IMG/VR virus record: IMGVR_UViG_3300033145_000777
Coordinates: 1 to 64,000 of that record
DNA: 64,000 nt
Reading direction: 5' to 3' (one strand)
Source: a virus
Under the pieces are notes generated by a model. The model was not told the origin of the DNA. It saw nothing but the letters and a program-made list of their open reading frames with translations, and did not search any database. A program made the position numbers and the translations under genes. Below, piece after piece: positions 16,919-41,902 of the stretch; positions within the stretch are counted from its first letter, which is position 1, and every line of letters starts with the position of its first letter.

Positions 16919-17845
16919 ATGACGGGTAAAGTTAGAGTCAGATTAATAGACGCTGACCAGAAGGAGAAAGAGAAGGGCTTTCCGAACCTTGCTTTGATGA
17001 AAATTAGTTCATATTATAAAACCGAAGGAGCTGAGGTAGGGTTCAACGTAGCAGATCCGAACCTAGTCTATATCAGTGTTGTATTCGAAGAGAACTTGGA
17101 ACAAGCCAGAGGGATCGCTACCTATTACCCAGAAGCAGAGGTGTTCCTAGGAGGTCCCGCACTGGAGATTCCTAACACTCTACCCCCCGAGATAGAGAAA
17201 TGTATGCCTGACTATGAGTTATATGGGAGTGATTATAGCATGGGATTCACTACTCGGGGATGTATCAGAAAGTGCCCGTTCTGCATAGTCCATAAGGTGG
17301 AGCCGGAGTTCAAATACCATAAGCACCCTCGCGTGTTCCATCACCCGGATCATAAGAAAATAGTGTTCCTTGACAACAACTTCTTAGCGTGCTCTAATCG
17401 ACTGGAGACCATCCAGTATATCTTGGACCACGACATCAAGGCGTGTTTCAATCAAGGCTTGGACGCACGGCTAATAGATGAGGAGGTGGCGGTCAAGCTC
17501 GCGTCGATGAAGCTCTATAACCTGCACTTCACATTCAGAACGATCTACGTGGCCTGGGATTTGATGGATAGCCAAGATGGTGTGTTGAAGGGAATACAGA
17601 ACCTAATAGATGCAGGGGTAAATCCGAACAACATCAAGGTCTATGTGCTGACTCTCTTCAACACCACCTTCGAAGAGGATAAGTACCGGGTAGAGAAGCT
17701 GTTGAAAATGGGCGTCGAACCCTATATCATGAGGTATAATGGGGATAAGTCCAGCAAGGATGTTAACCAACTTGCAAGGTGGTGCGCGAGGCATCTGTAT
17801 CGGGTATGCAAGTTCGAGGATTATGATCCTAGGAATCACAGGTGA
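16919..17845 (+). CDS. radical SAM protein (phage-type, FPNLALMK N-terminus)
   Basis: TTRGCIRKCPFC, FLDNNFLA, FNQGLDARL. Confidence 0.85.
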   Translation: MTGKVRVRLIDADQKEKEKGFPNLALMKISSYYKTEGAEVGFNVADPNLVYISVVFEENLEQARGIATYYPEAEVFLGGPALEIPNTLPPEIEKCMPDYELYGSDYSMGFTTRGCIRKCPFCIVHKVEPEFKYHKHPRVFHHPDHKKIVFLDNNFLACSNRLETIQYILDHDIKACFNQGLDARLIDEEVAVKLASMKLYNLHFTFRTIYVAWDLMDSQDGVLKGIQNLIDAGVNPNNIKVYVLTLFNTTFEEDKYRVEKLLKMGVEPYIMRYNGDKSSKDVNQLARWCARHLYRVCKFEDYDPRNHR

Positions 17846-23740: not shown

Positions 23741-24118
23741 GTGTGTTTGGCTACTGTAACACTTTCCGGGTTCAACGTTTTCACACAGTATCTAGGTAAA
23801 CTACAAGATTCACTTGATAGCATTGCAGCTGCTGCTGTTAGAGAGGTTGCTGAGAGTATTCGTGATGATGCAAAGGAATGGGTAAGAGTTGATACTGGTA
23901 GCCTAAGAAAGAGCATCAGGGTTCAAAACCGCAGACTCTCAGGAGGGTTTCACACCATCGGAGTATCAGCTGGTGGGTACGTCACAAACCCAAAAACAGG
24001 AAGAAAGGTAGACTATGCCTTATATGTAGAGGCAGACTATCCATTCTTGAGACCTGCTGTGATGGCACATGCAATGGACTTAGTTGCCGCAATGAAATGG
24101 AGGATGAGCAATGTCTGA
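23741..24118 (+). CDS. HK97 gp10-like tail completion protein
   Basis: RVDTGSLRKSI, YALYVE, PFLRPA. Confidence 0.8.
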   Translation: MCLATVTLSGFNVFTQYLGKLQDSLDSIAAAAVREVAESIRDDAKEWVRVDTGSLRKSIRVQNRRLSGGFHTIGVSAGGYVTNPKTGRKVDYALYVEADYPFLRPAVMAHAMDLVAAMKWRMSNV

Positions 24119-27100
24119 AGTATTTAGTATTGTAGCATACGTTAAAGCCCGTGTAGATGAGGCTAAGAGGGATTTTGCAACATTTCAAAAATCAGTTGAC
24201 GACAGCAAACAAAGCCTAGATAATTTGGGAACAGCAGGTGACGTTGCAGCTGGGATCCTCATTCAACAATTCAGTCAGAACGTAGTCAGGGCATTCGAGA
24301 CATTTGGAAGAGTCACTGTAGACTCGTTTGCAGATTTTGAGACAGCAACTGCACGTATCATAGCCACAACTGGAGCAACAGGAGATGAGCTGATAGAGCT
24401 CACAAGCATTATTGAAGAATCGGCTATGACACTTGGAACCGATTTCGGTGTAGGTGCAGCAAGTGCAATGAGTGGGCTTGAGTCTTTGGTTAAGGCAGGA
24501 TTAGACCCAGCAACTGAAGCAACCCAAGCACTGGAAGGAGTCTTACAACTAGCCACGATTGAGCAGATGAACACAGCATCTGCCGCTAACATGGTTATAG
24601 CTGCAATGACTCAGTATGGTCTAAAGGCAAAGGATACCACCAGAATAGTTGACGGGTTCGTTCAAGCATCAGCAGCTGGAATTGACACTGCAGCAGGATA
24701 TGCTAGTGGTCTCGCAAACGTAGGAGCAACGGCAGCCTCAATGGGGTTCAGCATGGAAGAGACATTGGCTACCCTAGTCCAAATAGACGCTTCCCAGAAA
24801 GATGCACGAAGATCAGGAACATTCCTTAACAGGATGCTTATTGACCTAGCATCCAAATCAAAAGACGCAGGACTGGAAATCTACAACGCAGACGGCTCAA
24901 TGCGATCTATGGATGATATTATCACTGAGCTAAGGGTCAAGATTCAAGGATTCGGCAACGATCAAGCAGCAGTAAACGAATGGCTAGGACAATTCCAGTC
25001 ACTCTCACAGAGAGCCATACTCTCCCTAGTAAACTACGATGGAACAATAGAAGACACCCAGATCAAACTCCAAGGTATGTCAGGTGCCCAGGAAACAGCT
25101 AACGTAATTCTAGACACCTACGCTGGTCGCCTTGCTGTAGCTGATGCAAAACAGGAAAGTGCAGCTATTGGGATGGGTGAAGTAACCTCTGAATTGAGTA
25201 TAATGAGTGCAGAGTTCATGGCGTCCCTTGGACCCGTAGGTCTCTTAGCAGACTCCCTTGGCCCACCTATGCTTAGTGGAGCAATGCAGGGCGTTACAAT
25301 GGTCTTCGTTCCACAGCTGATTAAAACCCTCGGGCAAATGGTAGCCCAGATGGGTTTAGCAACAACCGCATCCACCATCCTTGGAGGTGCAATGAACATC
25401 ATGACAGGTCCCATAGGGTGGATTACCCTTGCGGTGGGAGCCCTAGCTTTGGCTTGGAGTAATGATTGGGGAGGCATACAGGAAAAGACAGGTGCTGTGA
25501 TTGACTTCATTATGGAGAAGATTGCTTGGGTCACTGATGGGATCTCTTGGTTTGGAGACTCTGTTAGAGGAATACTCAAATGGGTTGGAGATGGATGGAC
25601 GGCATTAAATGACACTATCGGTGAGCAACTAGGTAGTCAAGTCGTACTTGTTGAATCAGCTCTTGACGATGAGCTGAATGCAATAGAAGATAGCTATGCT
25701 GACCAGGTTAGTTTAATCAAAGAATCCTATGTAGAAAGACTATCAGATATAGATGCAGCATTAGCGGGTCAACTCAACGTCTCTGAGTCACACTATGAGG
25801 ACTTGAAGAGACTGGCAGAAGAAGCTCATGAAACAGCGTTAACTGATTTACAGGAGCATTGGGTAGACCAGATTGATGAAACAGCTGAAGGCTGGGAAAG
25901 CGTAGTTGAGGAATACGAGAGCCATTACGCTGATATAATTAATGAAACAACCGAAAGCTATAGCAACCTGCTTTCTGAAACCGAGACATTCTATGATGAT
26001 ATGCTTGCAGAGCAGAATGCGTTCCTAGTTGCAATAAGGGAAGGTCGAAACCGTGATCTTGATGACCTTGAACTCAATTTCCTGTTAGAAAAGAAGAAAC
26101 TCGAAAACCAGCTTGAAAAGAAGAAAATCTCAAAATTCGAATATGAGAAAGATATGGAGAAGCTGGAGAAAGACTACCGGGAGAAGAGGGCAGAAATCAG
26201 GGATGATTACCGCATACAGGAACTGCAGGCGGAAGAAACCTTCAGGACTGAGGAGGAACGCATTAACTCTGAGAGAGCCGATGCCCTTGAAACCATTGAA
26301 AAGGATAAGGCAGATGAGTTAGAGCGTATCAACGAAGAACAGAACGCAGCCATTCAACTGATTAGAGACGCGGAAGCCGAGCTTGCAGAGCAACATGCAA
26401 AGGAGTTAGAACAGCTTGCACTAGATCATGCAGCTGAACAAGCCCTAATTACATTAGAGGCTAATCGAGAACAGCAAAGGCTCACATTAGCGAACCAAGA
26501 AACACTCAAGAGGTTAGAAACAAAGCTTTACACCGACCTCGAAACAGCTGAGGAGGAGCATAAAACAGTTGTCACTGACACATGGACGGACATGTGGGAT
26601 GACCAGATGCAAACAACTAGAGACGCCACTAATGACATTGAAACAAACGTAGCTAACATGGATTCAGCCCTAGCCACCTCGATAGAAGGTCTTAGAGATT
26701 GGGCTTCAGACGTCGTTGATGCAGCAAAAAGTGCATATAATAAGGCTAAGGATTGGTGGGACAAAATCTCACGCGGAAATAAAAGCAGTGGAGGCGGCGG
26801 AGGCTCGCGTGATGGAGATGACACCGTAGTTACTGCCCCTGATCTTGATGCTGGAGACACATCACCTTCCACAGAAGGACCATGGGGTGGTAGCGAAAGA
26901 TTTGCGCTTGCCGAGGGCTTTGAGGGATGGGTTGATAAACCCACTAACTTCCTTGCAGGTGAGGCAGGACCCGAATACGTAAGCGTCACGCCCTCAGGAG
27001 CTTCCCGCCAGATTGCTGGCAAGACCACGATCATACATGGTCCTCTTCTTACCATTGAAGGAAGTGCTGATGAGAAGACAGCCAAGCTCGCAGCTAAACT

Positions 27101-27128
27101 TATTATGAGTGAACTGAGGAAATATTGA
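24111..27128 (+). CDS. tail tape measure protein (TP901-type core)
   Basis: 1005 aa, Ala-rich helical; IYNADGSMRSM, GPIGWI, coiled coil, LAGEAGPEYV. Confidence 0.9.
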   Translation: MSEVFSIVAYVKARVDEAKRDFATFQKSVDDSKQSLDNLGTAGDVAAGILIQQFSQNVVRAFETFGRVTVDSFADFETATARIIATTGATGDELIELTSIIEESAMTLGTDFGVGAASAMSGLESLVKAGLDPATEATQALEGVLQLATIEQMNTASAANMVIAAMTQYGLKAKDTTRIVDGFVQASAAGIDTAAGYASGLANVGATAASMGFSMEETLATLVQIDASQKDARRSGTFLNRMLIDLASKSKDAGLEIYNADGSMRSMDDIITELRVKIQGFGNDQAAVNEWLGQFQSLSQRAILSLVNYDGTIEDTQIKLQGMSGAQETANVILDTYAGRLAVADAKQESAAIGMGEVTSELSIMSAEFMASLGPVGLLADSLGPPMLSGAMQGVTMVFVPQLIKTLGQMVAQMGLATTASTILGGAMNIMTGPIGWITLAVGALALAWSNDWGGIQEKTGAVIDFIMEKIAWVTDGISWFGDSVRGILKWVGDGWTALNDTIGEQLGSQVVLVESALDDELNAIEDSYADQVSLIKESYVERLSDIDAALAGQLNVSESHYEDLKRLAEEAHETALTDLQEHWVDQIDETAEGWESVVEEYESHYADIINETTESYSNLLSETETFYDDMLAEQNAFLVAIREGRNRDLDDLELNFLLEKKKLENQLEKKKISKFEYEKDMEKLEKDYREKRAEIRDDYRIQELQAEETFRTEEERINSERADALETIEKDKADELERINEEQNAAIQLIRDAEAELAEQHAKELEQLALDHAAEQALITLEANREQQRLTLANQETLKRLETKLYTDLETAEEEHKTVVTDTWTDMWDDQMQTTRDATNDIETNVANMDSALATSIEGLRDWASDVVDAAKSAYNKAKDWWDKISRGNKSSGGGGGSRDGDDTVVTAPDLDAGDTSPSTEGPWGGSERFALAEGFEGWVDKPTNFLAGEAGPEYVSVTPSGASRQIAGKTTIIHGPLLTIEGSADEKTAKLAAKLIMSELRKY

Positions 27129-29551: not shown

Positions 29552-29797
29552 ATGAGTATAATAGATTTTAAACAGATCGCGGCGGAGGCACTCATTGTCA
29601 GTAAGGAGCTTCGGCGGCTTGGCACTGAGATGCGTGTGTTCTGCACCAAAGTTGTGAACATTGAGGCTGAGGATAAGGATGGGGTTGAGACTGTGTTGAA
29701 ACCCGAGGAGATGAAGACACGGTACATGGAGCTTCGGGCGCAGATTGCGGCGATTGAGTTCCCAACCAAAGTCACACCACCGGAGGTTGACCCATAA
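29552..29797 (+). CDS. hypothetical protein
   Basis: GGTG SD; coupled to the next gene. Confidence 0.5.
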   Translation: MSIIDFKQIAAEALIVSKELRRLGTEMRVFCTKVVNIEAEDKDGVETVLKPEEMKTRYMELRAQIAAIEFPTKVTPPEVDP

Positions 29798-31206
29798 TGG
29801 TGCTTGAAGAACATCTTGTCTGTGACCTCAGGATGAACGAAGGCAGCGGCACAGTCACCCGTGATCGGAGTGGGAATGATGCTAAGGGAACCTTCGGGGC
29901 AGGAGGCGAGGCTCCGTCATGGGCTGACGGAAAATGGGGTATAGGAAAAGCTCTATCCTTTGATGGTGGAGACATCCTCACAGTTAATGACTTAATCACA
30001 TTACTTGCTGCCGTGGAATCTGGGGCTATTGAGGCATGGGCGAAAATTGACACCGACGCAGGAGCCAATGAGACTATATTCAGCGTGTCAAGGAACGTAA
30101 ACGCCACTCTAACTGAACTACTAGTCCTATATAATACAGGTGGGGCTACCGATAACTTCATAATAGTGTTAAGAGTGGACGGGACAACTCAATGGTCGGC
30201 AGCGAGTGCCGTAGGTACTGTTGACCCGTATATTGGAGAATATGTTCACTTGGTTTTAACTCAAGATGGGATTGAGCCCACTTTGTCTATTAACGGGAAC
30301 TTATCTCCGTTGATTTTTAGTGATGAGACTGATAAAACAGCGTGGTTTAAGGCATTGATAACGGATGCCGCCAGCCCATCTGATGTGGCTACTGTTGGGG
30401 CGGTTATAAGAAATGGCGCCAAATCAATACACCTCACTGGTGATGTTCAGGTTCTCCGGGTCTATGATGCTGTGCCTTCTCCTCAGCAAGTTCGGGCGTT
30501 GTATGCGGAGGGACTCATTAAGCTCCGTGATGGTAGGGTGTTGGATATGCCTTTCAACGAAGGCTCAGGAACCGTGACAAGGGATAGAAGCCCATCAGAC
30601 ATTCAGGGTGTTTTGACTCCGGGGGCAGGAGGATGGGTAGAAGGAAGAAACGGGAGGCAGGCGATTGATTTCGATGGCGCCGATACTAGGGTGAATTGTG
30701 GGAATCCGTCCTCTGTTGACAACATCTTTGATGGTGGTGGTTCGCTTAGTGTGTGGATTAACCCAGACTCAGATGGAGAAGCAGGATCAGGGAGAATATT
30801 CGATAAACGAGATCCGGGGTGGCTATGTCTTGTCAAATCCGAAGCTGGTGGAAAAGTTGAGGTTAGGCTACATCAGGACTTTGATATAACTGACGGGGTG
30901 TGGGACACAACATTCCCAATAGTTGTGATTGGAGAAGACACCCATTTGGTGATAACTTACGACAGCATGGATGTTGGAAATGACCCGATTTTCTACATAA
31001 ACGGAGTGTCATACACTGTAGACAATGGAATAACAGAGACAACCACTCCCGAGGGTTCTAGTGCGGATGACAGCACAAAGAGCCTTGGATTAGGTGGGAG
31101 GACAACTGGAACTAATGTTTTCGATGGCAAAATCGACTCACCCCTTCTTTATAAAAGAATTCTTTCTCCAAGAGAAGTTCGTGAACTGTACGAGGCGACA
31201 AAGTAA
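29797..31206 (+). CDS. tandem LamG/ConA-like domain protein (putative adhesin)
   Basis: Two repeats of (M/F)NEGSGTVTRDRS...FDG...W...HLV.T...Y..(L)S..(Q/E)VR.LY. Confidence 0.85.
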   Translation: MVLEEHLVCDLRMNEGSGTVTRDRSGNDAKGTFGAGGEAPSWADGKWGIGKALSFDGGDILTVNDLITLLAAVESGAIEAWAKIDTDAGANETIFSVSRNVNATLTELLVLYNTGGATDNFIIVLRVDGTTQWSAASAVGTVDPYIGEYVHLVLTQDGIEPTLSINGNLSPLIFSDETDKTAWFKALITDAASPSDVATVGAVIRNGAKSIHLTGDVQVLRVYDAVPSPQQVRALYAEGLIKLRDGRVLDMPFNEGSGTVTRDRSPSDIQGVLTPGAGGWVEGRNGRQAIDFDGADTRVNCGNPSSVDNIFDGGGSLSVWINPDSDGEAGSGRIFDKRDPGWLCLVKSEAGGKVEVRLHQDFDITDGVWDTTFPIVVIGEDTHLVITYDSMDVGNDPIFYINGVSYTVDNGITETTTPEGSSADDSTKSLGLGGRTTGTNVFDGKIDSPLLYKRILSPREVRELYEATK

Positions 31207-33297: not shown

Positions 33298-34065
33298 ATG
33301 GCGAGAGATCCCAAAGGTAGATTTGTTAAAGGTCATATTCCTTGGATCAAGGGTAGAAAGGCGTCTGAGGAAACTAAGCAGAAACTTGTTGAAAGCCACA
33401 AGGGGCAGGTTCCTTGGAATAAGGGTGTAACAGGCTATACTACTTCATGGAAGGGTCGGAAACATTCTGAAGAAACTAAGCAAATATTGAAAGAAACCCG
33501 TAAGAGGCAGATATTCACTGACGAAACTCGGAAGAAAATGAGTGACACGAAGAAAAGAATGGGGAATGAACCTTTACTGAATCACATTAAAGAACACGGT
33601 TCATGGAATAAGGGCTTGACCAAGGAAACGGATGACCGGGTAAAAAAATACGGGGAGTCTCAGAAGGGTAAGGTCATTTCTGAGGAGACTAGGCAGAAAA
33701 ATCGTGAGGCCAGAATGAAACAGCGACTACCCAAAAAAGATACCTCTATTGAACTTGCCTTACAAAGGGGACTTGATGTGGTAGGCATTAACTATGACAC
33801 CCATCTTCCAGTCTGTGGTATATGTCAACCTGATATAGTTTTTCCTGAAATGAAACTCGCAGTTTTTGCTGATGGGGATTACTGGCATAACCTTCCCGGA
33901 AAAAGAGAAAAAGACTTAAAACAAAACCAAGTTTTGAAGGAGAACGGCTGGACAGTTCTCCGTTTCTGGGGACGTGAGATAAATTCTGATATAGAGGGTT
34001 GTGTTAATAAGATTAGGAAACATATAGGCTTTCTCATCAGGGTAGACAAGGACATGATGAAATGA
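33298..34065 (+). CDS. free-standing homing endonuclease: NUMOD3 repeats + Vsr/DUF559-like nuclease
   Basis: PWNKG and SEETKQK repeats; PDIVF...AVFADGDYWH; GWTVLRFWG. Confidence 0.85.
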   Translation: MARDPKGRFVKGHIPWIKGRKASEETKQKLVESHKGQVPWNKGVTGYTTSWKGRKHSEETKQILKETRKRQIFTDETRKKMSDTKKRMGNEPLLNHIKEHGSWNKGLTKETDDRVKKYGESQKGKVISEETRQKNREARMKQRLPKKDTSIELALQRGLDVVGINYDTHLPVCGICQPDIVFPEMKLAVFADGDYWHNLPGKREKDLKQNQVLKENGWTVLRFWGREINSDIEGCVNKIRKHIGFLIRVDKDMMK

Positions 34066-35585
34066 AGATAAAAGATAAAGTCAAGATGCGGGGACGATGT
34101 CGTTTCACGATAAGAGACGCCGAGACGGGAGAGATCGTTGAGCAGACTCCTTGGAGAGATAACCTAGTCACGGATGTCGGAGAAGAAATGTACGCCCAAT
34201 TAATGAAGGGAGACACAATAGACCCATGCAATTACTGCGCCGTAGGCGATGATAACACACCAGCCGCCGAAGCCGACACAGTTCTAGGCTCTGAGCTAGG
34301 ACGACTTGAGGTAACGGAAATAACCATCGCAGGCTCCGTTGTCACTTACAGCACATTCTTCGGGTCAGGCGACGCCAATGGTTGTTATGATGAGTTAACT
34401 GAATGTCTAACTGAGGGTGGCTGGAAATACATTAAAGATGTTCAAAAAGGAGAACAAATATTAACCTTAAATGAACAAGGATGCCTGGAGTATCAACCTA
34501 ACCTAAAAACCCATAAATATTCACACTCAGGAATCATGTATTCCTTACAGCGTCCTGGACGATTCAATCTTCTTATTACCCCAAAACACTGGTTAATCGT
34601 AAAGAATCATTCATGGCATGACCATATGAGAAGGTCAAAAATATTAACAGGGAGACAATGGCACCATGATTTATTTAAACCTGTAATGACCGAAAACTGT
34701 CTTCATGGAAAATGGGATATGATTAAATCAGGAGAATGGCATGGGGAAGAACCAGAGACCATTACTATTCCGGCTTTAAAATACAAAATGCAGGCGTGGA
34801 AAACAAAATATATAAAAGAGAAACCTGAAAGAAAATTTAAAACATCCCCCTTCCTAAAGCTGACGGCTTGGTATCTTTCAGAAGGTTCAGTTGATTATGG
34901 TACGACCGGTAATCCTAATAGAACTAAAATTAGTCAAATAAAAAAGGAAGAAAACCGACAAGAAATTGTTGAATTGTGTAAAGAATTAAAACTAAATTAC
35001 TCAATAAACAAAAAAGGAATTAACATAAATGATAACCAGATAGCTACTTACTTTACCGCTTTTGGAAAAAACGCCCTGGAAAAAAGATCACCCTTATACA
35101 TTAAACGATTATCCCAAAAACTAATTCAAGAGTTCCTCCACACATATATGAAGGGGGATGGCAATCTCAAAAAGAACTATCTTTTCACTTCATCACCGGC
35201 AATGAGAGATGATCTCCAAGAACTAGGCATCAAAGCAGGATATGGTGCAGACTATACTGCATACATATCTTCAAACAGCTTTTCTGAAAAAGAAAAATAT
35301 ACAATTCGATTATTAAAAGGAAAATCACACTTAGCTATTGGGCGTGGACACTCTTTAAAACCCGTGCCTTTTTCAGGGTTTGTATATTGTTTAGAGGTGC
35401 CTAACCATGTTTTTCTAGTTAGACGAGAAGGAAAAACGGTGTTTTGTGGAAACACATGGTGGGAAGTAGGTATGCTTAACGCAGCGGTAGGTGGAGTCCT
35501 AATTGCTCGTACCGTTCTAGGAGGCGCACAGGTAAAAAACGCAGCGAACACAGTGACGATAGATTATGAGCTTTCTGTTACTTGA
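34062..35585 (+). CDS. tail/baseplate protein (~150 aa mature) interrupted by an intein
   Basis: Exteins NLVTDVG...AVGDDNTPAAEADTVLGSE...DANG|TWWEVGMLNAAVGGVLIART...IDYELSV, typical of phage tail-collar-type proteins. Confidence 0.75.
   Translation: MKIKDKVKMRGRCRFTIRDAETGEIVEQTPWRDNLVTDVGEEMYAQLMKGDTIDPCNYCAVGDDNTPAAEADTVLGSELGRLEVTEITIAGSVVTYSTFFGSGDANGCYDELTECLTEGGWKYIKDVQKGEQILTLNEQGCLEYQPNLKTHKYSHSGIMYSLQRPGRFNLLITPKHWLIVKNHSWHDHMRRSKILTGRQWHHDLFKPVMTENCLHGKWDMIKSGEWHGEEPETITIPALKYKMQAWKTKYIKEKPERKFKTSPFLKLTAWYLSEGSVDYGTTGNPNRTKISQIKKEENRQEIVELCKELKLNYSINKKGININDNQIATYFTAFGKNALEKRSPLYIKRLSQKLIQEFLHTYMKGDGNLKKNYLFTSSPAMRDDLQELGIKAGYGADYTAYISSNSFSEKEKYTIRLLKGKSHLAIGRGHSLKPVPFSGFVYCLEVPNHVFLVRREGKTVFCGNTWWEVGMLNAAVGGVLIARTVLGGAQVKNAANTVTIDYELSVT
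34383..35453 (+). mobile_element. intein (357 aa) with LAGLIDADG-type domain
   Basis: CYDELTECLTEGGWK start, ITPKH block B, WYLSEGS and YMKGDG motifs, VYCLEVPNHVFLVRREGKTVFCGN followed by Thr. Confidence 0.9.
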
Positions 35586-35708: not shown

Positions 35709-36074
35709 ATGGCTGAGAAAATAGGTGAACCAATTCCTCGGGAACTCTGGGATCTTCTGGAATTAAACCTTAAGATACGCGACGAAGAGTATCAGATTAA
35801 AGGCTGGAGGGCAGCTGTTTTCCGTGAGTTTCTGATAAACGGTGCAGCCATGACCCCTGACGGGGTACATAGTTTTATCGCTGCAAACGGTATGTTCAAA
35901 ATTGACTCTAAAACTGTGATTGAGTTCCTATTCAAACAAGAAGAAGAGGGGATGCTCACAAGCCGTAGAGAACCCAGCGCAAAAACTCCGCATAAATCTA
36001 GACTGGTTTTTGTTTCAGCGTTTCACCCAGAGATGATTCAGTATCAAATGATAAAACACAAGGAGGAGAACTAA
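35709..36074 (+). CDS. hypothetical protein, possibly winged helix
   Basis: 121 aa; pattern only weakly wHTH-like. Confidence 0.45.
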   Translation: MAEKIGEPIPRELWDLLELNLKIRDEEYQIKGWRAAVFREFLINGAAMTPDGVHSFIAANGMFKIDSKTVIEFLFKQEEEGMLTSRREPSAKTPHKSRLVFVSAFHPEMIQYQMIKHKEEN

Positions 36075-36075
36075 G

Positions 36076-36726
36076 CTGCCAGGACAAAAGTGGATTACTG
36101 GAGATGTTATTACCTTCGCTCGTATGAATCAGAAAACCCTCATAGTTCAAGCTGCAGAGCCCACAATTATGTATGTGGGCATGTGCTGGTTTGATGTAGA
36201 TGATGATAGATTGAAGGAGAGGAATGCAGCTAACGCTGCATGGATAGAACGCCCAGGCGTCACTCTGACAGCTACTATCTCGGGTCTTTGGACTTTTGAC
36301 CGTGGGGCTGCTGTCCCATTCGCTGTGGATGCAGCGAGCCTGAAGGTTACGAACCTTGACGCTGACAAGGTAGATGGACAGCACAGAGTTCTTAACATTA
36401 ATGCTGACCATGACCATGAGGGCGCAGGTGCAGAGGGCGGAACCCTTGACGTTGCCGCTATTGCCTCAGGGATCCTTAGTGTGGCGAGGGGAGGAACAGC
36501 ACTCGCCGCGTATGCACAGGGAGGAATACTATACATTTCAGGTGCAAACACCCTCTCAAGGTTAGCCCCAGCCGCAGCTAACCGGGTGTTGAGATCAACT
36601 GGAGCGAATGCACTTGAGTTCGGAGTCCTTGTTACAGCAGACATTCCCACCCTCACTATAGCCAAACTCTCAGATCACAACAAAGCAAACCATGATTCAC
36701 TGTTGATTTATGCGAGGTATGCTTAA
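36076..36726 (+). CDS. tail fibre protein (proposed CTG start at 36076)
   Basis: KWITGDVITFARMN anchor motif, NLDADKVDGQH, SGILSVARGGT, Gly/Ala-rich; AGGAGG at 36061. Confidence 0.7.
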   Translation: MPGQKWITGDVITFARMNQKTLIVQAAEPTIMYVGMCWFDVDDDRLKERNAANAAWIERPGVTLTATISGLWTFDRGAAVPFAVDAASLKVTNLDADKVDGQHRVLNINADHDHEGAGAEGGTLDVAAIASGILSVARGGTALAAYAQGGILYISGANTLSRLAPAAANRVLRSTGANALEFGVLVTADIPTLTIAKLSDHNKANHDSLLIYARYA

Positions 36727-36741
36727 GAGGACTTGAATAGT

Positions 36742-37170
36742 ATGCCGTTTGTCTGGACCCAGAACATCGCAGTCGATGCCCTAATAGAAGCAGCTGACGT
36801 CAATGAGGTCAAAACCAACCTTGATTCCATTTACACAGCCTTGGGGATCACTAGAGGGGGATGTGGGGCTGGAGGAGGATGGGTTGAACTCCCCGTAGGA
36901 GTTGGTGACTTGATTGAGTCAGCTGACTTTCAGGAGATGAGGGATGTCACTGACTTTGCCTACGACAACAGGTGTCCCTCTTTTGATGCCGCTGATTTTG
37001 GGTCTGATGAGGCAGTGCATGATGAAGGCGTCGATGTTGGAGATAACACGGGTTATAATAGTGACGACGACTCAAGCTATGACGATAATGATCACGGCAC
37101 TTATGAGTCAGGACACGATACAAGCGTTAATGATTACGATGACGACTCATTTAATGATATAAACGTGTAA
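36742..37170 (+). CDS. Asp/Asn-repeat protein 1, putative radical SAM substrate
   Basis: MPFVWTQNIAVDALI N-terminal motif, present twice in degenerate form; Cys followed by 16 tetrapeptides, 11 ending in D/N. Confidence 0.7.
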   Translation: MPFVWTQNIAVDALIEAADVNEVKTNLDSIYTALGITRGGCGAGGGWVELPVGVGDLIESADFQEMRDVTDFAYDNRCPSFDAADFGSDEAVHDEGVDVGDNTGYNSDDDSSYDDNDHGTYESGHDTSVNDYDDDSFNDINV

Positions 37171-37185
37171 GGTGGAAATGAAAAA

Positions 37186-37482
37186 ATGCCGTTTGTTTGG
37201 GTGCAGAACATCGCCGTAGACGCATTAATCGACTCAGCTGACTTGGCGGAGATTCGAACTAATGTAGATTGGGTGGAAGATAACAAATGTGCTGCCCATG
37301 ATACAGGGCATGATTTAACAAATCATGGTCCCGTTGATAATGGGGATGATGCACCCGTGAACGTCGGAGAAGATGGCACCTATGACTCTGGAGATAATGA
37401 CGGATATGATGGCACAAAAAACGCTGGTGCTAACTCTGGGGAAGATGGCAGTTACAATAATGGAGACAACAACGTCGTTTAG
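37186..37482 (+). CDS. Asp/Asn-repeat protein 2, putative radical SAM substrate
   Basis: MPFVWVQNIAVDALI motif; Cys followed by 15 tetrapeptides, 14 ending in D/N. Confidence 0.72.
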   Translation: MPFVWVQNIAVDALIDSADLAEIRTNVDWVEDNKCAAHDTGHDLTNHGPVDNGDDAPVNVGEDGTYDSGDNDGYDGTKNAGANSGEDGSYNNGDNNVV

Positions 37483-37494
37483 AAGGTAAATAAA

Positions 37495-38811
37495 ATGAGT
37501 CTTGTAGCAGCAGAAATGTTAACCACGGGTACATGCCCTTTCAACTGTTCATATTGCTATATTCCTAAAACGGAGTATATGAAGGAAATACACGCCAAGC
37601 TAGTTGAGCATCTTCAAAACGGGAACTACATTGAGTTACTGAAAAAAGTCTATGGTGAAAACCTTACTCATTTAGGGCTCTGGGGTACAGAACCTACGCT
37701 CACAATACCACTGATTGCTGATCTTTTACCAGCACTGTTAAATGAGTTTCCTCTTCTGAAGGAGATAAAGTTTTCAACAGCTATGATTTCAGACCCTTTG
37801 ATTATAGCGAACTTTGCTAAAGCATTATCTAAAACAGGAGTTAAGATTAACCTCAGCGTTCAGATGTCTCTTGATGGTCCCTCATGGATTACTGATAAAA
37901 ATAGGATGCGTGGAGCCGCTGCTCTTGTCCCTAAGAATCTATATGCTCTTGTTAGGATTCTGAATGATCATGACCTCAATGAAACAACAGTCGAGTTCCG
38001 ATGGAAGGCAACTCATAGCATCGAAACAATCAAAATATTTGCTAATAGTAAAAAAAGGATTCACGAGTATCTTGGCTTCTTTGAGTCTATACGTCGCCGC
38101 TTCAACAAGATCAATAAAAACAAAAACATGAAACTTGTCTCAACCTCGGCTCCGACAACTCTCGTAGTACCAGGAAAATACACCAGCACAGATGGTAAAA
38201 TATTCGCAAAATACCTAAAGACCCTCCACAAAGCAGACTATGAATCCACTTATAGTAGTCGGCTGAATAAAATCTTCAAGTATGGAAGGGATATAGACAA
38301 AAGGAGAATGTTTACATGTAGTGGTGGTGACTCCAATCTCGGCATAGCCCCAGGTCGGATACACATCTGTCACCGCACCTTCTACCTAGACGATGACAAA
38401 TACATTCAATCAGTCTTAGCATCTGAAAGCTCAGTTGGCGACGTAGAAAATTGGGACATATCCCTTTTCCGTAAAGGTACAATAGATTTTGTGAGGGACA
38501 ACTACATTGTTCCCGTCTCTGACCTACCTCGGTTCCTATACGTGATGCGTGGCTATCATGATTTCTGGCGGCTACAACTTGGGCATGTAAGAGCTATGTT
38601 GATAGAGTTAGCACTCGCTGGTCAAGCAGATGAAGTATATATAGACGATGAGGAACTAGCCTCTCTGTTCTGTCTTTTTATGGAAACAGCCTTAACCTGT
38701 CCGATGGAGAACTTGTTAAATACCGGGTCTATCCACCTTCAAACTGTATCCTTGATAAGGCTGTTTGCAAACGGAGCTTTCCAAGAACTCCTAAAGGAGG
38801 CACAACGATGA
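37495..38811 (+). CDS. radical SAM protein with partial SPASM/twitch domain
   Basis: CPFNCSYC, WGTEP, SLDG, CSGG...ICHR, CPMEN. Confidence 0.88.
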   Translation: MSLVAAEMLTTGTCPFNCSYCYIPKTEYMKEIHAKLVEHLQNGNYIELLKKVYGENLTHLGLWGTEPTLTIPLIADLLPALLNEFPLLKEIKFSTAMISDPLIIANFAKALSKTGVKINLSVQMSLDGPSWITDKNRMRGAAALVPKNLYALVRILNDHDLNETTVEFRWKATHSIETIKIFANSKKRIHEYLGFFESIRRRFNKINKNKNMKLVSTSAPTTLVVPGKYTSTDGKIFAKYLKTLHKADYESTYSSRLNKIFKYGRDIDKRRMFTCSGGDSNLGIAPGRIHICHRTFYLDDDKYIQSVLASESSVGDVENWDISLFRKGTIDFVRDNYIVPVSDLPRFLYVMRGYHDFWRLQLGHVRAMLIELALAGQADEVYIDDEELASLFCLFMETALTCPMENLLNTGSIHLQTVSLIRLFANGAFQELLKEAQR

Positions 38812-40121
38812 GTTATCAACAAGAAAACGATACCCTAATCACCTCTCTATTTGAGCGAACATTCTTCGAGTCATGGAACGCGAACCCCCCGGAACTCTCA
38901 AACTTCCATAGGGTCGAGTTTATACTTAACTACAAATGCAACCTTGCTTGCAAATATTGCTATGTAACCCATTATGGGGATGAACTTTATCCTCCAGAAC
39001 TCTATAAAGATGAAGCACAAGTGCTAAATAACCTAGAGATGGTGCTTGATTGGTTTATAGAAAACAATTATGCTCCAGAAATAGAGGTATTCTCAGGAGA
39101 AGCACTCATTCAAGATATAGGCTATAAAGCCTTGAATATGATTCTTGATAAATTTGAAGGAAAGATCAAGACCCGTATTATCATCCCGACAAACTACACC
39201 TTCATTCTTTCAAAAACGCTAACCAAACAAGTTGAGACGCTCTTAAACCGAGGTAAAAAAATAGGGATACCCATTTTTCTGAGTGCTTCATTTGATGGAA
39301 AATATTGCGAGGCTAATCGTCCCTTCCAGCCTGGAGTTAAAGACTTGCGTGATGATGATTATTATGATAAGTGCTTTGCCTTCATTAAGAAATGGGGCTT
39401 CGGGTTCCACCCAATGATTTACTCTGAAAAAATTAGAAACTGGAAGGATAATTTCCTTTGGTTCCAAGAGATGCTTAAAAAACATAACATCCCTTGGTAT
39501 AGGATATACCTCTTATCCGTCCGTAATGCTGAGTGGAGTATTCAACAAACCCGTGATTTTCACGATTTTATTGAGTTTCTAATAAAATGGGTCTATGATA
39601 ATCCATGCAACAAAGACCCTAAGAAATACCTAGATTTTCTATTCAAAAAGCGTGGATTCAATATCCTCAATGGTCCTCTTTCTACTGTAGGCAGAGGAAT
39701 TGGGTGTTCCCTTCAGTCACAGTTATTTTTACGGCTGGGTGACTTAGCTATTGTTCCATGTCATAGAACTAGCTACGAGCACTTGATCTTAGGACACCTA
39801 AAAGTGGAGGACAACAAAATCGCAGGGATCTCCGCAAAGAACCCAGAGTTAGCAGTAACCAAACACTCGTTTAGTGCAAAAATGTTTCCTTATTGTGAGA
39901 CCTGTCTTATCCGTGAACTTTGCAGCTTCGGGTGCTTGGGAGCGCAGATTGAGACAACAGGTGATTTATTCACGCCCATTCCCACCGTTTGTCGTCAGCA
40001 ACACGCTAAAATAAGGAGCATGATTAAAACCTATCAGGAACTTAATATGCTTGATTTAATTCTCAGTAATCTTAGCACTGAGAAAGTGTACGCAATCAAA
40101 AAATTGGTTGAAATAATATGA
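38808..40121 (+). CDS. radical SAM/SPASM peptide-maturase-like protein
   Basis: CNLACKYC, FSGE, SFDG, GC...PCHR...CETCLIRELCSFGC...C. Confidence 0.9.
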   Translation: MSYQQENDTLITSLFERTFFESWNANPPELSNFHRVEFILNYKCNLACKYCYVTHYGDELYPPELYKDEAQVLNNLEMVLDWFIENNYAPEIEVFSGEALIQDIGYKALNMILDKFEGKIKTRIIIPTNYTFILSKTLTKQVETLLNRGKKIGIPIFLSASFDGKYCEANRPFQPGVKDLRDDDYYDKCFAFIKKWGFGFHPMIYSEKIRNWKDNFLWFQEMLKKHNIPWYRIYLLSVRNAEWSIQQTRDFHDFIEFLIKWVYDNPCNKDPKKYLDFLFKKRGFNILNGPLSTVGRGIGCSLQSQLFLRLGDLAIVPCHRTSYEHLILGHLKVEDNKIAGISAKNPELAVTKHSFSAKMFPYCETCLIRELCSFGCLGAQIETTGDLFTPIPTVCRQQHAKIRSMIKTYQELNMLDLILSNLSTEKVYAIKKLVEII

Positions 40122-40678
40122 GTGAACAGAAAAACCCACAAGAGATGTTTGATGAAAAGATAGAGACAATCGAAAAGATCATGGAACATAAAACAGATTT
40201 CACACAAACCTACGGTAATAAAGGAAGTGACATGATCATAGCCGCTTTCGACATTATGCGCGTCCAGTTTAGTGCTGCCATTCAACTGGAAACCTTGGAA
40301 GAGTCAGCCAAACTCGCAGTACAAGAGAAAACAGAGGTAGTTGAAAAAGCGTTAAAACTAATGCTCGACGTAGCCCTCTACAGGCCGATAACCAAAATAG
40401 TTCGTCACCTATCCCTTGAAGTCACAGAGTTTGCCAAAAACTGGAATGATCAAGTCCCTCAATGTCCAAATATAGCACAAAAGATCGCGGTTCTATCACG
40501 CATCGTGTCATCCCAGAAAACTATGGATGATACTATCCAGATCACAAAGAAGTTGCTGGAGAAGCTACAACGAGAAATGAGCAGACGCCCGGTAGCCTAT
40601 GAGCTTTCTAAGCACTACCTTGAAAGCACAGACTTTTCAATCAAGAGACGAAATGAAAAACAAAAGGAGGTGAAGTGA
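40118..40678 (+). CDS. helical hypothetical protein coupled to the radical SAM pair
   Basis: ATGA overlap with 38808..40121. Confidence 0.55.
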   Translation: MSEQKNPQEMFDEKIETIEKIMEHKTDFTQTYGNKGSDMIIAAFDIMRVQFSAAIQLETLEESAKLAVQEKTEVVEKALKLMLDVALYRPITKIVRHLSLEVTEFAKNWNDQVPQCPNIAQKIAVLSRIVSSQKTMDDTIQITKKLLEKLQREMSRRPVAYELSKHYLESTDFSIKRRNEKQKEVK

Positions 40679-40908
40679 TGAAAGTACACATTGATCGGAT
40701 TCGTTTGCTTGAAGACTTCGTACACGTAAAATATTCGTTAAACGAAAGCACTGTTGTTGGCTCTGTAAGAATACCTGCCGCAGGGTTTCAGGAAGAGTGG
40801 ATTCCAGCAGCGATTAAGCGAGACCTTCTGCTAAAAGAAGAAGAACGTGGGATCATAGAAGACCTAGTTCAGACGCTCGAAGGTCAGGAAATAGACATCC
40901 CCGAGTAG
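40675..40908 (+). CDS. hypothetical protein
   Basis: GGAGG SD; last gene of the late run. Confidence 0.5.
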   Translation: MMKVHIDRIRLLEDFVHVKYSLNESTVVGSVRIPAAGFQEEWIPAAIKRDLLLKEEERGIIEDLVQTLEGQEIDIPE

Positions 40909-40924
40909 TGGATTAAAGAACAAC

Positions 40925-40978
40925 TTTAGTCCATAAACTTTATATAAGTATTTGGGAAAGAAAGTACGACTCAAAATG
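40925..40978 (+). promoter_or_regulatory. promoter cassette copy 3
   Basis: tttagtccataaactttatataag...gactcaaaATG. Confidence 0.8.
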
Positions 40979-41278
40979 CAAAAGAATAAAAACAGGATAG
41001 CAGAGCCTAAAGGATTTATAAAACAGATAGAGTTCACGGCAATTCTTATCGGAGTAGTACTCCTACTAGGAAGCTACCTCGTTCTTCTGTACACCTTCAT
41101 GAGTGCATGGTTTAGCCCAATAAAAACTGTGGTCGTTCACATTAACCAGCTGGGAGAAGCACTACCGGAGCTTATATTCCTAACACTGACCTTTCCATGT
41201 GTATGTTATTTACTCGCTCGACTTAAATGGAGTAATAAAACCAAACGTATATGGATTGACGTTAAACCATCAGAATAG
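40976..41278 (+). CDS. two-TM membrane protein
   Basis: Two hydrophobic segments; start reassigned to the cassette ATG. Confidence 0.55.
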   Translation: MQKNKNRIAEPKGFIKQIEFTAILIGVVLLLGSYLVLLYTFMSAWFSPIKTVVVHINQLGEALPELIFLTLTFPCVCYLLARLKWSNKTKRIWIDVKPSE

Positions 41279-41364: not shown

Positions 41365-41541
41365 ATGTCGGAAGATAAAGCGTTGATTCAAGTCTCCGTT
41401 GAACTCCGTGATACCCTGAAATCACAAAGAAGGATAAAGCCCGATGGTGAACTTGAAACCATCGAGGAAGTCCTTCACAGGAAAACTATGGAGAAAGGGC
41501 TAGACTTGAGAGGCAGGAAGATAGGTCACGATGAGAGGTAA
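41365..41541 (+). CDS. ribbon-helix-helix-like small protein (58 aa)
   Basis: IQVSVELRDTLKS...ETIEEVL; not in the supplied ORF list. Confidence 0.6.
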   Translation: MSEDKALIQVSVELRDTLKSQRRIKPDGELETIEEVLHRKTMEKGLDLRGRKIGHDER

Positions 41542-41848
41542 GAACGAGGATTCAGCCATAGAACAATTTGAAGCAGAGGGATATGACGTTATCAAGGTAG
41601 GGATTCCAGACCTCATTCTACTCAAAGAAGGCAAAATCAGATTTATAGAAATCAAGACAACTGGTAAGCTGAAACGCGATCAGAAAAGAACCCATGAACT
41701 TTTCAGAAAACACAATATTTCTGTCGAGGTATTTCGCTTAGGAGAACAACCAAGTACAAATATTAGAATCTCCGTTGAGCTTCGTGATACCCTGAAATCA
41801 CAGAGAAGGATAAAGCCCGATGGTGAACTTGAAACCATCGAGGAAGTC
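41393..41848 (+). repeat. 80-bp direct repeat (41393..41472 and 41769..41848)
   Basis: 77/80 identical; all three differences are at synonymous third positions. Confidence 0.9.
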
Positions 41849-41902
41849 TTACTAAGACTTACCCGTGAGGCTGACATTGATCTAAAGGAGAGGATAGAGT
41901 AA
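41531..41902 (+). CDS. PD-(D/E)xK nuclease (VRR-NUC/resolvase-like) fused to an RHH-like domain
   Basis: GIPDLILLKEGKIRFIEIK...Q; C-terminus duplicates the upstream small protein. Confidence 0.75.
   Translation: MRGKNEDSAIEQFEAEGYDVIKVGIPDLILLKEGKIRFIEIKTTGKLKRDQKRTHELFRKHNISVEVFRLGEQPSTNIRISVELRDTLKSQRRIKPDGELETIEEVLLRLTREADIDLKERIE

Follow-up and report, generated by a model that had tools for sequence, protein, structure and literature searches.

Why would a virus encode two radical S-adenosylmethionine (SAM) enzymes at the end of its tail genes, next to a pair of small proteins that repeat every four residues? The question is raised by IMG/VR virus record IMGVR_UViG_3300033145_000777, an 81,182-bp sequence with direct terminal repeats that is rated complete and of which the first 64 kb (hereafter, the window) were analyzed. 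The genes of interest, all on the plus strand, encode the repeat proteins P1 and P2, the enzymes rSAM1 and rSAM2, an all-alpha protein that we call the helper, and a 77-amino acid (aa) open reading frame (ORF) (Table 1). The repeat proteins, the two enzymes and the helper form a widely conserved, co-inherited cassette. Judged by synteny alone, P1 and P2 are very probably the substrates of the enzymes, and we lean slightly towards the explanation that the cassette modifies both proteins post-translationally and that the products stay on their N-terminal domains as tail-associated proteins.

Related loci were recovered with an alignment of 25 rSAM2 homologues (A1); scans of viral contigs with rSAM2 or P2 as single proteins yielded no confirmed relative, whereas the alignment-based scans succeeded. 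The 65 loci, 47 viral and 18 from species-representative, metagenome-assembled genomes (MAGs), include 57 distinct ones; with the locus of the window, the numbers become 66 and 58. A BLASTP comparison of the window proteins with the ORFs of these 66 loci detected rSAM1 in 64, P2-like proteins in 35, P1-like proteins in 31, the helper in 31 and the 77-aa ORF only in its own locus. Iterative searches with jackhmmer found the helper in 57 loci and the substrates in 56, although the latter figure is perhaps inflated by composition. Thus, of the two accessory ORFs that the original prediction, a reading of the same DNA made earlier, had attached to the enzymes, the helper is a conserved component, but the 77-aa ORF, which has no family match in Pfam, NCBIfam or PHROG, is not.

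The usual gene order is P1-P2-rSAM1-rSAM2-helper, with two variants, rSAM1-rSAM2-helper-P1-P2 (L016-L019; L numbers denote individual loci) and rSAM1-helper-P1-P2-rSAM2-helper (L021, L022, L023, L025 and L027). In the five loci of the second variant, the helper is present in two copies, one after each rSAM gene, which suggests that it is an enzyme partner. Under translation table 11, 10 of the 58 distinct loci show no substrate, and six of these end at a contig edge by the first rSAM gene. L031 contains in-frame TAG only and, when TAG is read as Q, encodes a complete cassette with two substrates; L041 contains in-frame TGA only: under table 11, jackhmmer detected an incomplete substrate ORF in it, and table 4 yields a complete cassette. 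L057 and L061 encode an HxsA3/A4-type repeat protein in place of the P1/P2-type substrate. Enzymes unaccompanied by repeat proteins, the finding that was expected to speak against a coupling of the two, were encountered among the loci with readable flanks in L037 only. Apparent reassignment of stop codons in the relatives is also seen within rSAM2 itself, where TAG is the only in-frame stop in L031 (5 times), L039 (4) and L045 (7), and TGA is the only one in L040 and L041 (5 and 6 times, respectively).

The labels of the MAG loci are scattered over Saccharibacteria, Parcubacteria, Omnitrophota, Woesearchaeota, Thermoprotei, Nanohalarchaeota, Halanaerobium and others, and because three of these contigs are identical to IMG/VR contigs, many of the MAG loci are probably binned viruses. 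Positions 36000-41000 of the window matched none of 50,697 phage records at the DNA level, and no description of the cassette was found in the literature. What appears to be new is a viral, tail-linked form with an Asx (Asp or Asn) ladder and enzyme families of its own; radical SAM maturation of repeat proteins as such is already known.

P1 and P2 are paralogues (BLASTP E value 8e-15) that share the sequence MPFVWxQNIAVDALIxxAD, and their organization is as originally described, with a common N-terminus followed by a Cys and a series of tetrads. In P2, 14 of the 15 tetrads after the junction Cys end in D or N, a count reached in any phase by 1 of 200,000 composition-preserving shuffles; in P1, 11 of 16 do so (3,107 of 200,000 shuffles). 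Tandem Repeats Finder detected no DNA tandem repeat at a score of at least 30; the period is therefore kept by selection at the protein level rather than being a product of recent slippage. Both proteins are strongly acidic and have one ladder Cys, at the head of the ladder, where the junction reads C-X3-D. Neither protein contains a signal peptide or a membrane anchor, as read from the sequence, and neither has an NCBIfam match at E≤0.1.

Across the family, the substrate homologues range from 98 to 505 aa, and the cores reach more than 300 residues. We analyzed 88 cores (8,488 residues), which are composed mainly of S (14%), D (13%), N (11%), Y (11%), T (10%) and G (9%), along with V (6%), A (5%), H (5%) and C (1.5%). 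With period 4, a cyclic hidden Markov model gained 0.372 nat per residue, and with period 8, the gain was 0.402, against -0.018 with period 5 and -0.029 with period 3, so that the period of HxS repeats fits the cores worse than no period at all; the autocorrelation of S/T is 1.83 at lag 4 and 0.08 at lag 2. The consensus tetrad is [S/T/G/A]-[T/G/S]-[Y/H/V/D]-[D/N/Y], sometimes with C at position 4. All 130 Cys residues of the cores were assigned to the D/N position, along a path through a model for which these data had also served as the training set, and Cys accounts for about 6% of the ladder position family-wide. The original notion of a ladder in which Asx stands in for Cys holds in the sense that the two interchange at this position and that Cys residues are too few for a thioether ladder. 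The tetrad can also be re-read as [Y/H]-[D/N]-[S/T]-x, recalling HxS and FxS motifs, a reading that we do not press because the aromatic residue and Ser are not coupled.

The enzymes are linked to each other by a 4-nt gene overlap, and overlaps of the same length join rSAM2 to the helper gene and the latter to the 77-aa ORF. By sequence, both enzymes belong to the radical SAM superfamily: rSAM1 scores 33.4 bits against PF04055, above the gathering cut-off of 29.5, and rSAM2 scores 24.5 bits, below it, but the CxxxCxxC cysteines are nonetheless present in 47 of its 47 homologues. In rSAM1, CxxxCxxC is kept in 45 of 46 sequences, and given three extra invariant cysteines (C275, C292 and C402, in 46 of 46), this enzyme probably holds one auxiliary cluster. 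In rSAM2, all ten cysteines are present in 47 of 47 sequences, including the seven of the SPASM set (C300, C318, C363, C366, C372, C376 and C395), the arrangement by which SPASM domains bind two auxiliary 4Fe-4S clusters; this bears out the earlier description of two coupled radical SAM genes, one with a full SPASM Cys set; the match to the SPASM model TIGR04085 amounts to 23.8 bits (cut-off 27). Because the cluster cysteines are conserved, both enzymes look catalytically competent. With cluster motifs beginning at residues 14 and 44, neither enzyme has room for an N-terminal recognition element (RRE) of the type that binds the leaders of RiPPs, peptides that are made by the ribosome and then modified post-translationally.

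The two enzymes are barely similar in pairwise comparison (E value 0.076) and were joined by profile iteration. In a midpoint-rooted FastTree topology without support values (93 sequences, 418 columns), rSAM1 and rSAM2 form two clades with broadly parallel branching; in our interpretation, the duplication is old and its two copies have been passed on together. At E≤0.001, rSAM2 has 552 homologues among 2,650 scored candidates, with 49-79% identity among the matches listed, a few of which are named after MAGs of Parcubacteria, Paceibacterota and Colwellbacteria. Against the sequences of the PDB, the rSAM2 profile matched 8vpo and 5wgg only, at E values of about 1e-7 and over the radical SAM core. 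A tblastn search of the phage records with rSAM2 retrieved eight records, all of Campylobacter phages, at 26% identity. The radical SAM gene of these cultured phages (CP220, CP21, F379 and CJLB-12 to -14) aligns over 83% of the rSAM2 length; in CP220 (L067, 16347-17450), it is located near baseplate genes, and its neighbours show no period-4 protein.

The AlphaFold2 (AF2) model of the helper consists of seven helices (predicted local distance difference test score, pLDDT, 92.6). The helper has no match in Pfam, NCBIfam, PHROGs or a Foldseek search of the PDB (E≤0.001) and no usable feature in the Protein Atlas; judged by secondary structure, it is no PqqD-like RRE. A predicted complex of rSAM2, the helper and P2 scored 0.00 against a mark of 0.32, a result that counts neither way.

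The N-terminal parts of P1 and P2 had been taken for RiPP leaders, a reading that the present results do not support. The N-terminal domain consists of one (P2) or two (P1) strand-plus-helix units with the signature M-x-F-x-W ... E-I-R-x-N-x-D ... D-N-x-C (alignment A3), ending in the near-invariant D-N-x-Cys junction. In the AF2 model of P1, residues 1-80 have a pLDDT of 78-93, with helices at residues 17-34 and 60-75. At E≤0.001, a profile of the unit matched 625 of 1.84 billion representative proteins (clusters at 50% identity), with 118 of the matches reaching E≤1e-10; among the best 150 matches, 135 are shorter than 200 aa, 13 have 200-399 aa and two are longer. In the 960-aa protein P0261, four galactose-binding-like repeats (DUF5000, 72.9 bits; F5_F8_type_C_2) are followed by a C-terminal P1-type domain and a core; in the P1-type protein of L012 (3986-5191), a Laminin_G_3 domain is inserted between the two units; and the secreted protein P0252 contains three units without a core. 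A search for longer fused forms (alignment A5), in which 8,000 candidates of 579-2000 aa were scored, found none at E≤1e-5, a weak negative, given that the exhaustive search found P0261. The P1 model matched nothing in BFVD at E≤0.001 and, among 48,161 PDB representatives compared with VIA-align, only generic helical hairpins (best Z 5.4). The presumed leader is thus predicted to be a folded domain of about 80 residues, able to form part of lectin-type, receptor-binding-like proteins.

By gene context, the closest known system is the His-Xaa-Ser (HXS) system (NCBIfam TIGR03976-03979). In three loci labelled as candidate phyla radiation (CPR) bacteria (L057, L061 and L065), HXS clusters contain this enzyme pair and its helper, located directly after an HxsA3/A4-type protein that has a different, membrane-anchored leader and His/Ser-rich repeats and is identified with NCBIfam as HxsA4 (101.4 bits, cut-off 55) or HxsA3-like. 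The enzyme encoded upstream in these loci is HxsB (475.9, 514.2 and 499.8 bits; cut-off 370), and one encoded downstream is HxsC4-like (147.9 bits, below its cut-off). The substrate of L065 carries a virus-like, D/N/Y period-4 tail, that of L057 carries a short one and that of L061 is pure HxS, and in the FastTree topology, again without support values, the HXS-linked pairs are nested among the viral pairs. The Colwellbacteria-labelled L061 (3173-14889) encodes eight radical-SAM-like ORFs in a row around a 291-aa protein that consists almost wholly of HxS repeats; HxsB, an HxsC4-like gene and the enzyme pair of the window type, accompanied by its helper, are among them.

According to the available part of the report on HXS, the system comprises HxsD-HxsB-HxsC-HxsA, with HxsC binding HxsD and a +8 Da change located on an SHRSS motif; it is a host defence that keeps phage DNA from entering by means of the repeat protein HxsA, which is matured by the radical SAM enzymes HxsB and HxsC with the small protein HxsD and is proposed to bind DNA via its basic repeats (Li et al., Nat Commun 2026, PMC13128918). 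In the same part of that report, the maturation of the repeat protein together with a small partner is supported by experiment, 99.7% of the systems are found in Pseudomonadota, and there is no mention of a second enzyme pair, Patescibacteria, Parcubacteria or tail fibres (PMC13128918). In HXS and in the viral cassette alike, one operon encodes a pair of radical SAM enzymes together with a small partner that is not itself an enzyme and a repeat substrate that stays a protein. Unlike HXS, the cassette is viral and tail-linked, its helper does not match HxsD, and P1 and P2 carry an acidic period-4 ladder in place of period-3 HxS repeats, without a signal peptide or peptidoglycan-binding domain; its enzymes score 21.1 (rSAM1) and 20.7 bits (rSAM2) against the HxsB model TIGR03978 (cut-off 370), and rSAM1 scores 13.5 bits against the HxsC model TIGR03977 (267.9).

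Comparison with other radical SAM systems yields partial likenesses only. The CXXX-repeat system resembles the cassette in its period-4 ladder, Cys and Asx both occupying that position family-wide, but differs from it in that here two enzymes and a helper are involved and in that P1 and P2 have one ladder Cys rather than a Cys at every fourth residue. Identification of the enzymes as CXXX-repeat maturases was rejected, with 12.6 and 16.4 bits against TIGR04115 (cut-off 350) and 16.4 bits against TIGR04119 (cut-off 150). The CXXX target family PF27846 is named only in the Protein Atlas output, in which likeness serves as a lead only; for P1, this output consisted of leads below 0.9, including viral clusters with 23-25% of members carrying PF27846.

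Neither enzyme reaches the cut-off of any curated NCBIfam family, and the best weak matches (PapB, QhpD, nif11 and AmcB) are to peptide or protein maturases. QhpD, which forms thioethers from Cys to Asp or Glu, is among the top three for rSAM2, and the C-X3-D junction of P1 and P2 adds to the likeness to this enzyme and to PapB. The top match of both enzymes is PapB (NF047865; 45.7 bits for rSAM1, 36.5 for rSAM2, cut-off 340), described in the available part of its report as a ranthipeptide maturase (PMC9413430). The cassette differs from the PapB ranthipeptides in scores far under 340, in having one C-X3-D per protein instead of several C-X3-D/E motifs, which would allow at most one link, and in the lack of an RRE.

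Triceptide (three-residue cyclophane) synthases, such as AmcB, YhhB, GrrM and FxsB, are rSAM/SPASM enzymes that cross-link an aromatic-X-X motif. Their substrates are likewise repetitive and aromatic-rich, and the matches of our enzymes to AmcB (26.7 bits), YhhB (18.9 and 23.5), GrrM (19.7) and FxsB (14.3) are weak, all far below the cut-offs; V or D often takes the place of the aromatic residue in the ladder, and the +2 residue is not coupled to it. CrpC of Methanococcus voltae, according to the available part of its report, is a SPASM radical SAM enzyme that installs ranthionine cross-links on the protein CrpA and, as a section title states, has a predicted RRE (PMC13692751). As proposed here, it acts on a whole repeat-rich protein rather than on a short peptide; unlike P1 and P2, CrpA is Cys-rich and cellular, and rSAM1 scores 25.7 bits against TIGR04463 (cut-off 525).

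The position of the cassette ties it to the structural genes of the virus. The promoter-type motif GACYYAAAWTG has 10 plus-strand copies in the window (14564-63049), against 0.46 expected, each of which provides a start codon. None is present in the interval 20286-40968, and with the copy directly behind the last ORF of the cassette unit, the next gene block begins, which sets the 3' boundary of this unit; the cassette therefore forms the 3' end of the structural-gene block. Scans for sigma-70 promoters and terminators gave counts no higher than those in shuffled sequences. Upstream neighbours of the cassette in other loci match tail PHROGs in 3 of 10 cases. The ends of several flanking genes (L031, 3679-4359; L041, 3627-4457 and 8856-10277; L037, 4870-5634) resemble, by eye, the self-cleaving S74 tail-fibre chaperone domain, which we take them to contain.

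Table 1. Coordinates of the cassette and of other features in the window
Feature	Position	Strand	Remarks
P1	36742-37170	+	142 aa from ATG 36742; ORF opens at TTG 36733
P1, parts	36976-37167 (core)		N-terminal domain, residues 1-79; junction Cys78; 64-residue period-4 core
P2	37186-37482	+	98 aa; one N-terminal unit, residues 1-34
P2, parts	37288-37290 (Cys); 37291-37479 (core)		Junction Cys35; 63-residue core
rSAM1	37495-38811	+	438 aa; CxxxCxxC, residues 14-21 (37534-37557)
rSAM2	38808-40121	+	437 aa; CxxxCxxC, residues 44-51 (38937-38960); SPASM Cys C300-C395 (39705-39992)
Helper	40118-40678	+	186 aa; all-alpha; C-terminal motif PPAFELSxHYL conserved
77-aa ORF	40675-40908	+	4-nt overlap with helper gene; outside the conserved cassette
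GACYYAAAWTG copy	40968-40978	+	Preceded by TTTATATAAG; just behind the last ORF of the cassette unit
200-aa ORF	36124-36726	+	Presumed distal tail/fibre protein, a label by position only; directly upstream of P1
Tail-type protein	34062-35585		507 aa; N-terminus matches PHROGs for tail fibre and of unknown function; weak Hint match
Endonuclease gene	33298-34065		NUMOD3 and Vsr/DUF559-type; sits between tail genes
Laminin_G_3 protein	29797-31206		Pfam
Tape measure	24111-27128		20 tail PHROG matches

Large ORFs without annotation are also present between the tape measure and the cassette. In the 507-aa tail-type protein, the middle part, which gives the weak Hint match, is also matched by PHROG families whose annotations are ribonucleotide reductase and PhoH-like protein; such matches would be expected of an intein, and the protein seems to contain one. 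A third radical SAM gene (16919-17845; phrog_9298, 220 bits) is located outside the cassette, adjoining a helicase gene. Beyond the 3' boundary, a peptide of about 35 residues (SVELRDTLKSQRRIKPDGELETIEEVL) is duplicated, being found both in a 58-aa ORF (41365-41541) and at the C-terminus of a VRR-NUC ORF (41531-41902), and it looks as if the VRR-NUC nuclease gene had been inserted with duplication of its target.

Several observations weigh against tail-mounted products of recognizable chemistry. The 'tail fibre' that the original prediction had placed directly upstream of P1 retains its position at the end of the tail block but not a sequence-based identity: this 200-aa ORF matches no family in Pfam, NCBIfam or PHROG and no phage record, including by tblastn. 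In other loci, six of the 10 upstream neighbours have no PHROG match and one matches only families of unknown function. P1 and P2 match no virion family in Pfam, NCBIfam or PHROG, and the P1 core (residues 80-142) is modelled by AF2 as disordered, with pLDDT below 50, so that no fibre fold is supported. The location of the enzyme pair inside HXS defence clusters, whose HxsA is exported as an effector, speaks equally for an effector without a structural role. As to the chemistry, the scores far below every curated cut-off mean that it cannot be read from family membership. An aromatic-x-Ser cyclophane motif in the tetrad was rejected, the frequency of Ser at +2 being 0.36 after aromatic residues compared with 0.45 after V/I/L. 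The junction reads C-V-T-D-K in many homologues and, accordingly, is not strictly C-X3-D; these variants weaken the case for a strict Cys-X3-Asp thioether at this point.

On these grounds, the modified repeat proteins might instead be produced in the course of infection as effectors and be the viral counterpart of HXS rather than virion parts, for example, a superinfection exclusion or envelope-acting factor that would block the entry of competitor DNA or counter an HXS-like barrier of the host. The presence of the same pair and helper in genuine HXS clusters of three CPR loci favours this possibility, as do the lack of virion family matches and the fact that HXS itself, in the available account, keeps phage DNA out by means of a repeat protein that radical SAM enzymes have matured (PMC13128918). 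We nevertheless regard an effector as unlikely, considering that P1 and P2, unlike the HxsA3/A4-type proteins, have neither signal peptide nor membrane anchor and are acidic, whereas the HxsA repeats proposed to bind DNA are basic; that the cassette closes the structural block instead of lying in an early or accessory one; and that the N-terminal domain is fused to lectin-type domains typical of receptor-binding proteins.

A classical RiPP, with a host protease removing the leader and the modified core being released as a small bioactive peptide, would account for the layout of a leader-like N-terminus, repetitive core and rSAM/SPASM enzyme, and for the best weak enzyme matches being RiPP maturases. 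We consider such a peptide improbable. As the original prediction had noted, no protease or exporter is encoded nearby; Pfam found neither in 17 neighbouring ORFs (E≤0.01-0.1). The enzymes lack an RRE and the all-alpha helper has no fold match; the N-terminal part appears to be folded and is also found at the C-terminal end of a 960-aa protein; and cores of more than 300 residues occur.

Phage spike beta-helices have octapeptide repeats, and the slightly better fit of period 8 than of period 4, together with a glycosylation island and the additional radical SAM gene in this genome, could suggest that P1 and P2 are an unmodified fibre or spike (e.g., an Asn/Asp-ladder beta-helix) and that the enzymes act on a sugar, a nucleotide or another protein, but this is very improbable in view of the near-obligate co-occurrence and block-wise permutation of the substrates with both enzymes in more than 50 distinct loci, the resemblance of the enzymes to peptide or protein maturases, one with a SPASM domain, the presence of the same pair behind HxsA-type repeat proteins in cells, and the prediction that the core alone does not fold.

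We thus return to post-translational modification of tail-associated P1 and P2. In the mechanism that we propose, each substrate would combine a folded N-terminal domain with a C-terminal tetrad ladder, along which rSAM1, rSAM2 and the all-alpha helper would abstract hydrogen atoms and introduce covalent modifications, with the helper playing a part that may resemble that of HxsD for HxsC. The product would remain on its domain and be mounted on the tail, forming a modified distal appendage there; attachment and mounting are inferred from the lack of a nearby protease or exporter and from the occurrence of the N-terminal domain in lectin-bearing proteins. The tail-linked, uncleaved product that was originally envisaged is accordingly plausible, and we put its being a part of the virion at slightly better than even.

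As to the chemistry, our first guess would be intrachain cross-links that are seeded at the junction Cys and run along the ladder position. By analogy, this Cys might complete the auxiliary cluster for which rSAM1 has three Cys; for CteB, ligation of a cluster by a substrate Cys has reportedly been observed. The second guess is patterned epimerization, which would tolerate D, N, Y, C or K at the ladder position, and the third is an HXS-type modification of His/Tyr-x-Ser. A new type of reaction is likely because the almost Cys-free, acidic Asx/Tyr/His ladder defies known thioether chemistry.

A more far-reaching version, possible but on the whole doubtful, concerns many tailed viruses that are uncultured, TAG- and TGA-recoded ones among them: the distal four-residue ladder of a tail appendage, ribosomal at first, would be rebuilt by two radical SAM enzymes into a non-canonical, covalently stapled or D/L-patterned rod. 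Such rods, structural proteins that are cured enzymatically, would be a new class. In this version, the pair of enzymes has also been drawn into the HXS anti-phage clusters of CPR bacteria. If this is true, both sides of the virus-host conflict over cell entry share one maturation machinery.

Radical SAM maturation has been studied mostly on small secreted peptides and only very recently on whole proteins, namely, HxsA in defence and CrpA in a methanogen. The cassette would carry this chemistry into the structural modules of viruses, at scale, and its physical link to HXS provides a concrete handle on the function of this enzyme family. The finding also matters for the question of how viruses whose hosts are ultra-small and mostly anaerobic may build or protect the organelles with which they contact the host.

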